From the NCBI GenBank assembly GCA_030149205.1, contig JASBSB010000001.1:660001-692000 (forward strand): 32,000 bases of DNA, in the 5' to 3' direction. Below, piece by piece: positions 1,528 to 8,914 of the stretch (its first letter is position 1; each line of letters begins with the position of its first letter). The DNA comes from Candidatus Heimdallarchaeota archaeon (GTDB taxonomy: Archaea > Asgardarchaeota > Heimdallarchaeia > Heimdallarchaeales > Kariarchaeaceae). The translations under genes were made by a program, and so were the position numbers. Under the pieces are notes generated by a model. The model saw nothing but the letters and a program-made list of their open reading frames with translations. It made no database searches and was not told the DNA's origin.

Positions 1528-2730
1528 TCACTGGTAAGAAACTAAAATATTACCGATTACCAAGATTAACACTAAAACTTGTACAGATATTGACAAGAAA
1601 TTTCTAAATCCTTCTTTCACATATTGCAGGAGAAAAGAAAGAATCTTCCCCCCATCTGTGAAAGTGAATGGTAGAAGATTGTAAACCCCTACAGCTAAAT
1701 TCAGATTGGAAAGCCAAATTAAACTAAATGTTACAAAATATGGAAGAAGTGGAAGGAACCCAAAATTTGGGTAGTAGTTGGAAACTTTAATTCCTAAAGT
1801 TGATTTTGTATTATCTCCCCCAGTTTTTACAAGAACATCTGAATTTAATAGGTGAATTAACAATGTTGTATTTGCAGGGGTATGGTTCAAAACCCTAGTT
1901 AAGTCATAAACTGATGTGATAGCAACTTTGCCATAACTCTGATTGAACTCATTTATTCTGCTTATTCCAACTATTATATCTCCAGTATGCAATGGCTGAT
2001 AGTTAGGACTATAAGTGCTAAATCCATCAACTACAACACCTCCTGGACTCCCATAGAGATATGGCACAAAAAAGAGTAGAATTAAGAACAACAAGCTGAA
2101 GACTATATTTAATGTTACACCTGAACTTAGAATAGATAGCTTTCTAATTGATTTTTCTTTATCATTCATCCTAAATTGCTCTGAATTGTTTTTTGATTCC
2201 TCTGAATTATTTCCATTCTCGATTATTATTGATCCATCTTCTTCAGATTCCTCACCTAAATCCACAAAAGCACCTATAAAAACCAAGAAAACTCCAATCC
2301 CAATCCTTTTCACTTGAACTCCCATTGCGGTTGCAGCCATTAAATGTCCAAATTCGTGTAAAAGCAACGCAATAAACACTGCTATCAATATTATCAACAC
2401 CTCAGGTATTGAATAAAGATATATCGGGGTTGCAACTATTAAACCTCCAGAGAATTGAAAAAGGTTCCAAGCTAAGACAAGTGGGACTGTGAAGAACAAG
2501 GTAAGAGTGATTACAACTGAAAGCTTGAGGTATGACCTTACCAGACCTTTTAGACCTTCAATTCTTTCTATGAGCTTAGAAGAATCACTAATCTGGTACT
2601 GATAAATTGCATAGAAATAGGAGACAAAAATACCAAATTGTCTAAAATCAATGAAATAGGCAGAGATAATTAAGACTACCCAAAGGGATACAATTATTCC
2701 AAAAAATATGAGTAGGCTATAAAGAGACAA
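1528..2730 (-). CDS. Site-2 protease (M50 family intramembrane zinc metalloprotease) with a PDZ-like insert
   Basis: HEFGH zinc motif, GAFVD, C-terminal NLLPxxxxDGG, multiple hydrophobic segments; soluble region resembling PDZ (GVVV...LHTGDIIVGI). Confidence 0.9.
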   Translation of the reverse strand: MSLYSLLIFFGIIVSLWVVLIISAYFIDFRQFGIFVSYFYAIYQYQISDSSKLIERIEGLKGLVRSYLKLSVVITLTLFFTVPLVLAWNLFQFSGGLIVATPIYLYSIPEVLIILIAVFIALLLHEFGHLMAATAMGVQVKRIGIGVFLVFIGAFVDLGEESEEDGSIIIENGNNSEESKNNSEQFRMNDKEKSIRKLSILSSGVTLNIVFSLLFLILLFFVPYLYGSPGGVVVDGFSTYSPNYQPLHTGDIIVGISRINEFNQSYGKVAITSVYDLTRVLNHTPANTTLLIHLLNSDVLVKTGGDNTKSTLGIKVSNYYPNFGFLPLLPYFVTFSLIWLSNLNLAVGVYNLLPFTFTDGGKILSFLLQYVKEGFRNFLSISVQVLVLILVIGNILVSYQ

Positions 2731-4710: not shown

Positions 4711-5457
4711 ATGGAAAAATACAAACTAAAAATAATTGAGATAATTAAAGAAACAGAGAATATACATAGCTTTAAAATTGAAAAACCATCAAATTTCAAC
4801 TTTTTTCCAGGTCAATTCTGCTGGTTGAACACTGAATCTGAGGATGTAAACTTTACTCCGATGGCAATAGCATCTGGGATACTAGAAAATGAATTGAAAT
4901 TTACTGTTCGGGTATGGGGTGATACAACAAAGGCATTGTTCAACTTAAAAGAGGGAGACATTCTTACGGTTTCAGAACCTCAAGGAACTGGAATACCATT
5001 AAATATACTTTCAACGAAAAAGGTAATTGGGATTGCTGGTGGAACAGGGATAACACCAATAAGAAGTTTAATTTTTTCTAGAACCGACAAATCACTTACT
5101 GAAGTTGCATATGGAGCAAAAGAATCAACAGACTTGCTTTATAAAAATGAGTTATCTAAGCTAAGTATAAATTCTTACCTTACTACTGAAAAGGAGGAAC
5201 CTGGGTTTCATAATGGATTAGTTACTGATCTCCTTTCGAAAATAGTCCCTGCTAATGAAAATTCATTCTATTTTATAGTTGGCCCTAATCCCATGATTAC
5301 AGCTGTACTATCTAAATTATACGAGTTGAAAGTTCCCACTAGCCACATTTTTCTAAGTGTTGAAAAATTTGTAAACCGTGATGTTTTCGGCCCTGTTTTC
5401 CCTCTAGAGGAACTTGTAAATCTAAGACAGTTTTTGGTTAATCTATTACCTGAGTAA
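4711..5457 (+). CDS. FAD/NAD(P)-binding oxidoreductase, FNR superfamily (PyrK/AsrB/HydG-like), lacking the [2Fe-2S] cysteines
   Basis: FxPGQF, PMAIAS, GxTTxAL..LKEGD, IAGGTGITPIRS, YGAK, VGPNPM, terminal GPVF. Confidence 0.85.
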   Translation: MEKYKLKIIEIIKETENIHSFKIEKPSNFNFFPGQFCWLNTESEDVNFTPMAIASGILENELKFTVRVWGDTTKALFNLKEGDILTVSEPQGTGIPLNILSTKKVIGIAGGTGITPIRSLIFSRTDKSLTEVAYGAKESTDLLYKNELSKLSINSYLTTEKEEPGFHNGLVTDLLSKIVPANENSFYFIVGPNPMITAVLSKLYELKVPTSHIFLSVEKFVNRDVFGPVFPLEELVNLRQFLVNLLPE

Positions 5458-5506
5458 ACTATTGGCTTTGAAAAATTTCCTATTAAGTTAAAATATTAAA
5501 TTTGAT

Positions 5507-5971
5507 TTATTCTGCTTGCTCTGCAGTAAGGGTCACTGACCCACCAGCAGCTTCAACCTTTTTGACAGCCTTTACAGTTGCCTTTTGAACGGTTATGTTT
5601 AATTTGTGAGTGACTTCTCCCTGAGAGAGCAGCTTTTTGTACCCAAGTTTATCAAGGTCAACATTGAAAACGTCTCCATCTTTGGTTACTAATTGTTGTT
5701 TAACCAAACGTTCTACCGATGTATTCAGATGTGATACATTAATGGTTGGAGATTTTTTCAGATATTTTTGAGGTCTGATAAATCCGTATTTTCCACTAAA
5801 TTTCTTTCTGTTAAGCTTTGCTTCTTTGATTACACTGATCCAATTATGACTGAACCTTCCTGCGTTTCCAGCTCCACCAGACATTCCTTTGCCTTTGTGA
5901 TCCTTAACCACACCATATCCATGTGATCTTGAACCTCTCATTCTTCTGACTTTCTTTCTTTTTCTGATCAT
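5507..5971 (-). CDS. rpl15: 50S ribosomal protein uL15
   Basis: RKRKKVRRMRGSRSHGYG..K.H.G.G..GG.G.AG; AVKKVEAAGGSV; spc-operon position. Confidence 0.97.
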   Translation of the reverse strand: MIRKRKKVRRMRGSRSHGYGVVKDHKGKGMSGGAGNAGRFSHNWISVIKEAKLNRKKFSGKYGFIRPQKYLKKSPTINVSHLNTSVERLVKQQLVTKDGDVFNVDLDKLGYKKLLSQGEVTHKLNITVQKATVKAVKKVEAAGGSVTLTAEQAE

Positions 5972-5972
5972 T

Positions 5973-6452
5973 TTAAGCCATCCTCATGATTAACTTCGAC
6001 ATCTCTTCACCTCTGTATCCAAGGTCTCCATTTCTGGTTACTGGATTTTTAAGGGATTTAAATCCCTTCTTAGGGGGGGAGAGTCTGAAGACAGGTCTGA
6101 ATTCAGGAATATCAGTTAGTTTTGCATTTCCCTCCAATAAAGCCTTTGCAAAATCGCTGATCGATTTGAATTCAGTATTCTTTTTTATGTAAGCATCGGT
6201 AATTTTCTTTCTACCGGTTAGTTCACCTCGCTTTTTGATGAGGTGGATCAGGGTTTTTTTGTCAACTGATCCCCATGTTACCCTATCCTTAGCCTTATCT
6301 AGCATTCCTTCCAAAGTGGGATTCTTCTGAAATACCACAGCGTGATTCACCTTATGAAGCCTAAGAAGCGAAAGTGTCTTTTTGACTGAATGTTCAGTAT
6401 CAGCTTGTCCTCTCAGCCTAACTATAACAATCATTTCATTATTTTCACTCAT
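5973..6452 (-). CDS. rpl30: 50S ribosomal protein uL30 (archaeal long form)
   Basis: VIVRLRG, TLSLLRLHKVNH, FRLSPPKKGF. Start placed at the ATG at 6452, 2 nt after the uS5 stop. Confidence 0.96.
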   Translation of the reverse strand: MSENNEMIVIVRLRGQADTEHSVKKTLSLLRLHKVNHAVVFQKNPTLEGMLDKAKDRVTWGSVDKKTLIHLIKKRGELTGRKKITDAYIKKNTEFKSISDFAKALLEGNAKLTDIPEFRPVFRLSPPKKGFKSLKNPVTRNGDLGYRGEEMSKLIMRMA

Positions 6453-6454
6453 GA

Positions 6455-7078
6455 TTACCACTCCGTTGGGGGAAGAACATCATAGGTTCTTTTCAAGGCA
6501 TCAAATGTTGCCAAAGCATAATTGCTTGTTGTTGATGTGGATCCTGATGTGCGGCTCCAAATATCATTGATTCCAGCAAAAGAAAGAACTGTTTGTCCAA
6601 CTTCACCTGCTGCAAGTCCAAGACCTCTAGGTGCAGGTATAAGTTGAACTTTAACTGAACCAGTTGATCCAGATGTCTTGAATGGGATGGAGTGTTTACC
6701 ACCACAGTTACATTCCCAAGAACCACAGCCTCTACGGATGGGTGCAATGTTTAATTTGGCGTTAAGAATCGACTTTCGGATAGCTGGCCCAGCTTCTCTC
6801 AGCTTAGCCTCACCGACACCGACATATCCACCTCTGTTGCCAACCACTGCTGTAGCTCTAAATTGCCTTTTTCTTCCAGCTCTGCTCATCTTTTGCACGA
6901 GTTTTATCTGAAGTAACTGATCCTCCAGATTTGGAAGTAGAAGATCCACGATTTGCCACTCTCGGATAATTAATCCTTTTTGAAAAATCTCATCAATAGA
7001 AGTGACCTTTCCTTCGAGTACATCTCTTCCAAGTCTTGTTTTTGGTTCCCAATCGTCCATTACACTGGTACTACTCAT
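6455..7078 (-). CDS. rps5: 30S ribosomal protein uS5
   Basis: WEPKTRLGR.V..G, RRGCGSWEC, LIPAPRGLGL.AG, NYALATFDAL. Confidence 0.98.
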   Translation of the reverse strand: MSSTSVMDDWEPKTRLGRDVLEGKVTSIDEIFQKGLIIREWQIVDLLLPNLEDQLLQIKLVQKMSRAGRKRQFRATAVVGNRGGYVGVGEAKLREAGPAIRKSILNAKLNIAPIRRGCGSWECNCGGKHSIPFKTSGSTGSVKVQLIPAPRGLGLAAGEVGQTVLSFAGINDIWSRTSGSTSTTSNYALATFDALKRTYDVLPPTEW

Positions 7079-7082
7079 AATC

Positions 7083-7670
7083 TTAGAACTCCTTGTCTAT
7101 TGCCTTTACAGTTTTGTCAAAGAAGCTCGCAATTTTCTCTGGGGCCTGTTTTGCCTTCAAATAACCTGCATATCTTTGTTTGTAAAGTTTATTGTCTTCT
7201 TTTTTCAAGGCTTCACTGTATTTTGCAATGTGTGAACCTTTGATTATTTCTTCATCTGGGAAAATATCCTCACCGGCGGGAATCTCTATTCCTGCGTCAA
7301 TCACACCTTTCAGGCATGCGAAGAGCCTCGTTTTGTTTTGAGGGTTCTGTACTCCTAAATCGAGAATAGCAAAATCAATACCGCTCTTAAGTGCCTTTTT
7401 CCCTGCTAAATAACCTGTTAGGTAAGCTGCGGGGATATTTCCACCATTGATATTCCAACCAAACTGAGAAAGATTCATTGAACTAGCGGATGTTAAAGTT
7501 TTGTCTCCATCAGCAAGTGATTCAACCATTTGAACTCTAATGTTTTTGGTTGATTTTCTTATTACTAATCTGATACTCCTTGATTTTAGAAGCTCTTTTC
7601 TTCTGTAAAAATTGGTCTTTCCCTCTCTTCTTCTTCGAAGAGCAACTCTATATCTAGGTCCATTTGCCAT
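7083..7670 (-). CDS. rpl18: 50S ribosomal protein uL18
   Basis: MANGPRYRVALRRRREGKTN, RLVIRKS, AAYLTGYLAG, LKGVIDAG; GGTGA Shine-Dalgarno upstream. Confidence 0.98.
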   Translation of the reverse strand: MANGPRYRVALRRRREGKTNFYRRKELLKSRSIRLVIRKSTKNIRVQMVESLADGDKTLTSASSMNLSQFGWNINGGNIPAAYLTGYLAGKKALKSGIDFAILDLGVQNPQNKTRLFACLKGVIDAGIEIPAGEDIFPDEEIIKGSHIAKYSEALKKEDNKLYKQRYAGYLKAKQAPEKIASFFDKTVKAIDKEF

Positions 7671-7675
7671 TTATA

Positions 7676-8155
7676 TCACCTGTTGTAGGGAGGGATTTTT
7701 TTCTCTGCAAGACCTCGCTCAGAAATGACACTTGAAAGATATCTGACACTTCTGAATAGATTCCCTTTTGCTTGCAGGTATAATGTTCTGTAGGTATTAG
7801 GAGTGATGTACCCCTCATCTCTAAGTTTCTTCAGGTACTTTCTTTGAGCCCTGATTTTATTGATCCATACGGTCTTTTGATTGCTTCTCGCATTCAAACT
7901 CCCTTTCCTGGATCCTAAGCCTTTACGTTGACCACGTTGACGTTTTGGGTGATTTTTCCTCGCGTTTCTTCTACTGGTGCCAATTACCTTTCTTTTTGAA
8001 ATCACACCAGAAGAGATCAATTTTTCTATGTCTGCACGAGTTAAAGCCAAAGCTACATCATTTATCTTATGATGTTCTGGATCGATGTGAACACGATTCA
8101 CTCCAACCTTCAATATGCTGGATGCCATCTTACGCTGAGCCTTTAAATTGGTCAT
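7676..8155 (-). CDS. rpl19e: 50S ribosomal protein eL19
   Basis: NLKAQRKMASSILKVGVNRV.IDP, RKGLGSRKG, WINKIRAQR, YRTLYLQAKG. Confidence 0.98.
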   Translation of the reverse strand: MTNLKAQRKMASSILKVGVNRVHIDPEHHKINDVALALTRADIEKLISSGVISKRKVIGTSRRNARKNHPKRQRGQRKGLGSRKGSLNARSNQKTVWINKIRAQRKYLKKLRDEGYITPNTYRTLYLQAKGNLFRSVRYLSSVISERGLAEKKIPPYNR

Positions 8156-8685
8156 TCGGTCTCCTCCTTAAATTCTTCTTCAGCCTCTTCTTCAAGAGGT
8201 TCCTCTTCTTCAAGAGCGTCTTCCAATAGTTCATCCTCCTCATCTTCAAACTCGAAGTCATCCTCTGAGAATTCTTCATCCGTGAATTCTGATTCATGAC
8301 GCCTTACAATTGGATTGAGGATGTGAATTTCCATCTCTTCTGCTCTTTCAATGATCAAGGTTCTCTTTCTGCTACCGACAGTCCTTCCAATCTGTGCGAC
8401 TTGTGTGTCGGGATCAACTTTTTGTAAATCATCCAGGTTGTGCACTCGCACAATCTCGAAACCTGATGGGTGAAGCCCTCTAACCAGTTTGGGATTTCTA
8501 TAGCCCACATTTGGAGATTTACGTTTTCCCTTCAGCTTGTGACGCATCTTACTGTCAATACCACGAGGTCTTCTCCAAGTGGTTTGAATACGTTTTAACC
8601 TGTGCCATTCGGCTCTTAGAAACTTTGGTCTTCTCTTGTTTTTCTTAGACCTAAGTCGCAATAGTCTATCTTTCTTTTCACTCAT
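8152..8685 (-). CDS. rpl32e: 50S ribosomal protein eL32 with a long acidic C-terminal extension
   Basis: RPKFLRAEWH, WRRPRGIDSKMR, P.VGYRNP...RGLHPSG; final ~45 residues are E/D-rich; AAGGAG Shine-Dalgarno upstream. Confidence 0.97.
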   Translation of the reverse strand: MSEKKDRLLRLRSKKNKRRPKFLRAEWHRLKRIQTTWRRPRGIDSKMRHKLKGKRKSPNVGYRNPKLVRGLHPSGFEIVRVHNLDDLQKVDPDTQVAQIGRTVGSRKRTLIIERAEEMEIHILNPIVRRHESEFTDEEFSEDDFEFEDEEDELLEDALEEEEPLEEEAEEEFKEETE

Positions 8686-8827
8686 AGTAATTACTCCTTG
8701 AGTTATATTGACTAATCCGCTTCAATCAATCGTCAAATTCGATATCAAACAGTTGTTGATCGACGTTGGTGCTTTACGCAGAGGAAACGACCGACCGAAG
8801 TGGTTTCACACTTGGAAACCTAATGAT
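8686..8827 (-). promoter_or_regulatory. Structured 5' leader (~140 nt) of the rpl32e operon
   Basis: 14-bp helix 8800-8787/8733-8720 with four G-U pairs, two nested hairpins and a 5' hairpin at 8802-8820. The transcription start near 8827 is inferred from the TATA position. Confidence 0.6.
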
Positions 8828-8849
8828 TATACTTCTCCATCAATTATGT

Positions 8850-8857
8850 TATTAAAA
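8850..8857 (-). promoter_or_regulatory. Probable TATA box for the rpl32e operon
   Basis: TTTTAATA on the minus strand, about 30 nt upstream of the first leader hairpin. Confidence 0.45.
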
Positions 8858-8914
8858 GCTAAATGGTAAATTACAGATTTCGTGGCTTGAAAGAATCAGC
8901 GAACTATTCATGTT

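Follow-up and report, generated by a model that had tools for sequence, protein, structure and literature searches.

We identified a structured RNA leader upstream of the ribosomal protein gene eL32 in a Candidatus Heimdallarchaeota genome, and this RNA is conserved, with compensating base changes, across one Heimdall family (f1). It was found in the window, as we call the whole stretch of 32,000 nt of DNA that was analysed, where it lies on the minus strand in front of the operon eL32-eL19-uL18-uS5-uL30-uL15. By analogy with ribosomal protein (r-protein) leaders described elsewhere, it is probably an autoregulatory operator, acting in cis as the 5' leader of this detached operon. R-protein leaders are the chief means known for balancing the synthesis of r-proteins and of rRNA in prokaryotes. 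Very few are known from archaea (four candidates, PMC7247131), and we found none described for Asgard archaea or for the eL32/eL19/uL18/uS5/uL30/uL15 block.

The leader of the window and its genomic setting

The eL32 gene (8152 to 8685, minus strand; Pfam PF01655, E 5e-40) is the first of the operon in the list of open reading frames, with its ATG at 8685 to 8683. It is followed on the same strand by eL19, uL18, uS5, uL30 and uL15 (5507 to 8155), recognised from the open reading frames and from Pfam, which confirmed the gene order eL32-eL19-uL18-uS5-uL30-uL15. The stop codon of eL32 overlaps the start codon of eL19 in the sequence ATGA, and adjoining genes of the operon either overlap by 4-7 nt or are separated by gaps of 1-5 nt. 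This tight packing of six genes fits control from one 5' site. The gene upstream (9238 to 8915, minus strand) encodes a Thiamine_BP protein of 107 aa, and a spacer of 229 nt separates it from eL32. At the other end, uL15 is the last gene of the operon, and the next one, across the gap from 5457 to 5507, is a plus-strand FAD/NAD-binding oxidoreductase (4711 to 5457). In the canonical archaeal spc cluster secY stands after uL15; no secY follows uL15 in the window.

The sister family f2 has uL5, uS14, uS8, uL6 and eL32 contiguous. In the leader-bearing family f1 the eL32 block is detached, and its upstream neighbours vary.

A preliminary description of the window had placed a hairpin and a three-way junction in front of eL32. 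Every one of these helices could be read in the sequence where it had been placed on the minus strand, and the minimum free energy (MFE) fold reproduces them on that strand only: RNAfold of 8686 to 8827 (minus strand) gives exactly the hairpin P1 and a three-way junction with two inner hairpins, closed by 14 bp, at -32.9 kcal/mol. P1 (8802 to 8820) is the hairpin GGUUUC/GAAACC, in which 8820-8815 pair with 8807-8802; it is supported by the MFE fold, by covariation and by MAFFT-based recovery, and is directly followed by an invariant CA (8801-8800). The 5' strand of P2 (8787 to 8800) reads CUUCGGUCGGUCGU and pairs over 14 uninterrupted base pairs, four of them G-U, with a distal 3' strand, ACGAUUGAUUGAAG (8733-8720), which closes the three-way junction and whose pairing is kept in relatives. 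The energy of this duplex is -20.3 kcal/mol (z -4.9 against shuffled tails). Less stably, the same 5' strand can pair with a proximal strand at 8758-8767, part of the segment CCAACGUCGAUC (8758 to 8769, minus strand) that the covariance model R2, described below, aligns as the ancestral P2 3' strand. The GUUUC and pyrimidine bulge of P2 (8781 to 8788, minus strand) read GUUUCCUC in the window and GUUUCUCU in most relatives. Both inner hairpins come from the MFE fold: P3, UGC-GUAAA-GCA (8770 to 8780, minus strand), is shortened to 3 bp, compared with 6-8 bp in relatives, and P4 (8739 to 8763, minus strand) is an inserted, variable hairpin restricted to a long form of the leader. A Shine-Dalgarno sequence, AAGGAG, was read at 8694 to 8699 (minus strand), 8 nt before the ATG.

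The energy of the minus-strand fold is not beyond chance (z -1.29, with 23 of 200 shuffles as stable), and the case for the leader therefore rests on its relatives. Folding of the plus strand is less favourable (-24.6 kcal/mol, z +0.72), in agreement with the four G-U pairs and with the strand specificity that had been claimed from them. The higher GC content reported for the segment was likewise recovered, with a G+C fraction of 0.42-0.43 over 8700-8849 against 0.30-0.32 in neighbouring spacers. A plus-strand open reading frame of 53 aa across the same region (8708 to 8869) was taken as mechanical, because close relatives differ there by indels that are not multiples of three. Four DNA runs contained the same strain only, with a single SNP at 8872, outside the structure.

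A conserved core and its distribution

We drew eL32 loci from 12 species in 6 genera of family f1, from metagenome contigs, and from twelve further assemblies found via eL32 homologues. These yielded 24 different leaders, together with one locus of the same eL32 protein group (L067) in which no recognisable core was found and where the leader may have been lost or have diverged extremely. A TATA-like box, P1, P2 and a variable hairpin P3 are common to all 24 leaders. Across them, P1 has an inner stem of 7 bp and an outer stem of 3 bp with a bulged purine between them, and the invariant CA comes directly after it. The top of P2 consists of four invariant GUUU/AAAC pairs, with three pyrimidines (CUC, CCU or CCC) bulging from the 5' strand, and GUUUC is unchanged in 23 of the 23 aligned relatives.

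The pairs of this core are maintained through changes of sequence. In a model-guided alignment of the 23 relatives, 89% of the cells are paired and 18 of the 24 pairs show compensatory changes, including 9 of 10 pairs in P1 and 5 of 6 in P3; double changes occur in 135 cells, compared with 48.8 +/- 5.3 in shuffled alignments, and none of 500 shuffles scores as high as the real alignment, these counts being somewhat inflated by the fitting of the alignment to the model. Controls out of register, with one strand slid by 1-3 columns, are 36-45% paired. A structure-blind MAFFT alignment of nine sequences from outside the window's genus, read with a manual structure, likewise gave 89% paired cells, with compensatory changes in 14 of 24 pairs and 0 of 500 shuffles reaching the score, indicating that the covariation signal does not depend on model fitting. 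RNAalifold, run on a MAFFT alignment of 13 leaders including that of the window, recovered P1 independently. Conservation and covariation among relatives had been set beforehand as a check on the leader, and the P1/P2/P3 core covaries strongly across the family.

Three covariance models were used: R1, from nine seed sequences without the window's genus-mates; R2, from 23 sequences without the window; and R3, limited to P2 and P3. R1 matched three unseeded genus-mates of the window (E 2e-4 to 5e-3) and 11 of the 12 newly fetched eL32 loci (E <= 2e-5), and gave only 5.4 bits on the window's own copy. R2 matched the window weakly at 8758-8827 on the minus strand, beginning at 8827, with 23.4 bits and E 0.0024 in 69 kb; this is its sole match in the 3.3-Mb genome, where the genome-wide E is 0.11. 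The window's copy is the most degenerate member of the family, with a 3-bp P3, a change from AAAC to CAAC and a score of 23 bits, and its low score is explained by the CAAC decay and the short P3. Model matches fall on one strand only.

We searched 83 genomes of the class with R2 at E <= 0.001, a cut-off that the window's own copy does not reach. Ten of the eleven other f1 genomes had exactly one match each, and in every case it lay directly before eL32; in the eleventh (G004) neither R2 nor the query used for eL32 gave a match. There were no R2 matches at this threshold in 71 genomes of six sister families, in which eL32 still follows uL6, and R1 gave the same picture. A recurrent weak R1 match in family f2 was dismissed as noise, as it lies antisense inside the uS14 gene.

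The core is also preceded by a conserved putative promoter element. A TATA-like box, TTTTAATA, occupies 8850 to 8857 (minus strand) of the window and recurs upstream of P1 in relatives: a (C)TTTTAAtA-like box precedes the P1 outer stem by 29-38 nt in 13 of 13 first-round leaders and is visible in the 11 later ones. The usual archaeal spacing from TATA box to transcription start is about 26 nt. Judged by this spacing, the box would act as a promoter, with a predicted transcription start zone at 8821 to 8830 (minus strand). No T-run terminator was found between the structure and the eL32 ATG, and the box before P1 together with the absent terminator would place the structure inside the eL32 5' UTR. 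In the short forms of the leader, the Shine-Dalgarno sequence begins 0-5 nt after the P2 3' strand, which leaves no room for a second promoter for eL32.

Other sequences near the predicted promoter were noted. Most family members (L002-L006, L010, L011, L033, L064-L066 and L068-L072) carry a CGCG-containing motif (GCGCGCA, CGCGC or similar) some 17-20 nt ahead of the TATA-like box. It may be a transcription-factor site, and is absent from the window, which reads CCACG at 8870-8880. In one genome of genus g3, a tRNA gene (L009, 2267-2340, minus strand) ends about 80 nt upstream of P1. In family f2, where uS14, uS8, uL6 and eL32 are contiguous (L018, 1495 to 3283), the eL32 ATG is nevertheless preceded by a conserved TATA-like box rich in A/T and by some 45 nt of conserved sequence, which may represent an internal promoter. 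An equivalent leader structure in f2 was considered and rejected, as alifold gives one weak hairpin of 8 pairs (-2.6 kcal/mol) and no convincing consensus.

Short and long forms of the leader

The three-way junction of the preliminary description is present in the MFE fold of the window, and is not the conserved unit: the core found across the family is P1 followed by a simple P2/P3 stem-loop. The 14-bp helix with the inserted hairpin is a later elaboration, confined to the genus of the window and a small number of relatives. This long form occurs in 10 of the 24 leaders, belonging to the window's genus g1, genus g5 and the loci L061, L063 and L065. It has 40-70 nt, containing the non-conserved P4, inserted after the ancestral P2 3' strand, and a second, distal strand that forms a helix with the P2 5' strand and with the linker preceding it. 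The ancestral form is the short one, with its P2 3' strand abutting the Shine-Dalgarno sequence; in the lineage of the window, the insertion has lengthened the closing helix into a three-way junction, the new distal strand taking the place of the ancestral P2 3' strand.

Distal duplexes of the long-form leaders have energies of -11 to -24 kcal/mol (z -2.2 to -7.9 against shuffled tails), and the distal strands stop 10-31 nt short of the start codon. In the window, in its three genus-mates L002-L004 and in L006 of genus g5, the 14-bp helix is 97% paired, with changes on both sides, hence compensatory, in 2 pairs and one-sided, wobble-compatible changes in 5, a comparison of five sequences that has little statistical power. 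The sequence of P4 is not conserved even among genus-mates. An attenuator or terminator in P4 was rejected, since a run of five U is present in L004 only and is not conserved.

The proximal strand is still complementary to the P2 5' strand in the long form. In L002 and L003, a U-to-C change in the P2 5' strand is met by A-to-G changes in both the proximal and the distal strands, and the MFE fold of L004 takes the proximal partner. The proximal motif is CAAC in the window's genus, and the homologous sequence is AAAC(A/G) in all other genera. The two partners of the P2 5' strand may represent either a functional switch or a takeover in progress.

The distance from the core to the Shine-Dalgarno sequence also differs between forms, being 20-90 nt in genus g3 and in the long forms, so that simple occlusion cannot be the whole mechanism there. 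In six short-form leaders (L010, L011, L062, L068, L070 and L071), P2 is flanked by the invariant CAC that comes after P1 and by the GUG within a GAGGUGA Shine-Dalgarno sequence, and pairing between these two could lengthen it. In single-sequence folds the mean unpaired probability of the Shine-Dalgarno sequence ranges from 0.24 to 0.73, and its pairing is inconsistent. We rejected the pyrimidine bulge as a co-evolving anti-Shine-Dalgarno sequence: cognate combinations average -4.05 kcal/mol and non-cognate ones -3.6 kcal/mol, which is no meaningful difference, and two rows had the wrong GUUUC.

Predicted function, rival explanations and known systems

If the leader is an autoregulatory operator, one of the operon proteins, when in excess over free rRNA, would bind the invariant top of P2, comprising the GUUU/AAAC helix, the 3-nt CYC bulge and the base of P3. 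The bound protein would lock the closing helix beside the Shine-Dalgarno sequence and so block 30S loading on eL32, and the packed or overlapping genes downstream would be co-repressed via translational coupling. Here we infer the transcription start, the protein binding, the identity of the ligand and the translational repression. Among candidate ligands, eL32, as the product of the first gene, and uL18, a strong autonomous RNA binder, are weakly favoured guesses. A new operator might plausibly arise in a block that has lost its link to the spc control region upstream. We regard as rather doubtful the further-reaching proposal that this is the first RNA operator for an r-protein confined to archaea and eukaryotes (eL32 or eL19), which would have arisen in one Heimdall family after the break from a uS8-controlled spc operon and be becoming, in the window's lineage, a two-state switch in which the proximal and distal strands compete for the same P2 5' strand.

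The leader might instead act in cis with another effector, stabilising the 5' terminus against 5'-3' exonucleases, serving as a processing site or as a site for some other regulator, or sensing a small molecule or temperature. We consider this unlikely, although it carries appreciable weight: P1 would stand where the transcript is predicted to begin, mimicry of 16S, 23S or permuted 5S rRNA was not found, and the mutually exclusive P2 5' partners of the long forms, together with the proximal choice of L004, have a switch-like appearance. Against it, the conserved nucleotides are concentrated in one helix and a 3-nt bulge, which, to judge from the sequences, is the typical look of a protein site and not of a metabolite pocket; no riboswitch family was matched; and the element was found only before this one r-protein operon. 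To our knowledge, conserved structures so placed have almost always turned out to be r-protein operators.

An independent small non-coding RNA gene upstream of eL32, which the preliminary description had offered as an alternative, is improbable. The compact structured unit of about 75-110 nt with a TATA-like box of its own would suit such a gene, yet that same upstream box and the lack of a T-run terminator before eL32 argue against it. Furthermore, the short-form Shine-Dalgarno sequence directly after P2 would leave eL32 without its own promoter, and wherever the element occurs eL32 goes with it, even though the genes upstream differ. It is more improbable again that there is no functional RNA, the signal being promoter-proximal DNA conservation or chance folding. 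The fold energy of the window taken by itself would allow this, as it is not significant, whereas compensatory changes keep the pairs while the sequence shifts, and both the G-U pairs and the model matches are strand-specific.

We found no match in the window to any Rfam 15 family at the gathering threshold. Below the threshold, the best matches to the leader were unrelated snoRNA and lncRNA models (E 0.35-2.8), and six representative relatives gave none except for a neighbouring tRNA. A comparison with Rfam had been named beforehand as a check, and neither the window nor the six relatives matched a known family. Similarly, the earlier statement that no leader was known for this operon agrees with the survey of archaeal r-protein leaders (PMC7247131), from which it is absent, and with literature searches, in which full-text queries returned no description of an eL32 leader or of an Asgard r-protein leader.

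Resemblance to the rRNA site of the ligand is common, though not obligatory, among r-protein leaders, and has identified the ligands of many of them. R1 and R2 gave nothing at E <= 10 against the 16S and 23S rRNA of the window's own genome. R3, run with filters off against 16S, 23S and five permuted 5S loci, gave only matches of 7-10 bits with E > 2, and a strict pattern scan (GUUU, bulge, hairpin, AAAC) found none in the 16S or 23S of the window's genome. Motif look-ups placed GUGUUUCUCU in 16S helix 16 and GGUUUCUAUCU in 23S domain V/VI. Both of these short matches were set aside: we estimate that the 23S match is at chance level and that the exact 16S 9-mer would be expected about 0.02-0.05 times, and neither site is tied to an operon protein.

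A 5S mimic read by uL18 was also rejected, as the likeness is one of loose topology only, a capped helix followed by a two-helix arm, with no similarity of sequence or model. RF00001 gave no match to the leader at E <= 10, and the leader models gave none in the permuted 5S genes of the family. These 5S genes form an observation of their own. RF00001 had no match above its cut-off in 12 of 12 f1 genomes, where the sub-threshold matches are circularly permuted 5S genes, with the 3' half first, helix I capped by a short loop, then the 5' half, and complementary flanks. The copy in the window's genome lies at G000:C2:377444-377596 (minus strand; locus L074, nhmmer E 2e-17), with relatives L055-L057 and L059.

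In a K-turn, the bulge must be followed at once by tandem sheared G.A pairs. In the leader, U-C, U-U or U-A comes next on the bulged strand, with A, G or U as pairing partners, and the bulge (CUC or CCU) is flanked by U-A, C-G and similar Watson-Crick pairs that covary; we therefore rejected a K-turn on account of the absent G.A pairs. K-turn operators, such as the archaeal L7Ae 5' UTR and yeast RPL30, in which L7Ae or eL30 recognises an element in its own mRNA, share with the leader the succession of helix, 3-nt bulge and second helix, and differ from it in these G.A pairs and in their ligands, neither L7Ae nor eL30 being encoded in the operon.

The archaeal candidates described so far are two types of S15 leader (Halobacteria and Methanomicrobia), eL15 and L4, four in all (Eckert and Weinberg 2020, PMC7247131), and L32, L19e, L18 and uL30 are not mentioned in that paper. 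Like them, the eL32 leader is a conserved, lineage-restricted RNA defined by covariation in the predicted 5' UTR of an archaeal r-protein operon, with presumed binding of an operon protein; unlike them, it belongs to another operon, has another fold and is found in an Asgard host. The S15 and eL15 leaders show rRNA mimicry, and none was found for the eL32 leader.

In the spc operon of Escherichia coli, uS8 binds one mRNA site at the start of uL5, which mimics helix h21 of 16S rRNA, and acts further through translational coupling. This bacterial operon also holds uL18, uS5, uL30 and uL15, and feedback from a single site, established there, is what we propose here. In contrast, uS8 is not encoded in the detached operon, and the eL32 leader stands at the 5' end and bears no resemblance to rRNA; sister family f2 still has both uS8 and uL6 ahead of eL32. 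The operator of the L1 operon of Methanococcus vannielii copies the uL1 site of 23S rRNA. It shares with the eL32 leader an archaeal r-protein operon and a 5' structure near the ribosome-binding site, which there binds protein, whereas no copy of a 23S site was detected in the eL32 leader. By its fold, operon and lineage, the eL32 leader is most likely a new class among autoregulatory r-protein leaders.

With a length of about 75 nt the leader is a compact RNA, in which the GUUU/AAAC helix and its 3-nt bulge form a sharply defined candidate site for protein, and the six candidate proteins are small. As an operator it would be a natural example of new control emerging after an operon split from its old regulator, and the short and long natural variants could show how an operator is remodelled. 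Were the ligand eL32 or eL19, the leader would define the RNA motif recognised by a protein that eukaryotes also have.

The eL32 protein itself varies within the group. In f1 it carries a long acidic C-terminal tail (8152-8300 of the window), with 177 aa against about 108 aa for the Pfam domain, and in L067 (451-1209) the tail has grown to 252 aa, with DDENLDKLDL repeats. The eL32 genes of a g2-like lineage have no in-frame ATG where one is expected (L005, at about 1972-1974, minus strand; L068 and L069, just after 451). There, an ATT about 9 nt past the Shine-Dalgarno sequence (AGGAGCG or AGGUGA) yields the conserved N-terminus in three independent sequences, which suggests an AUU start codon.
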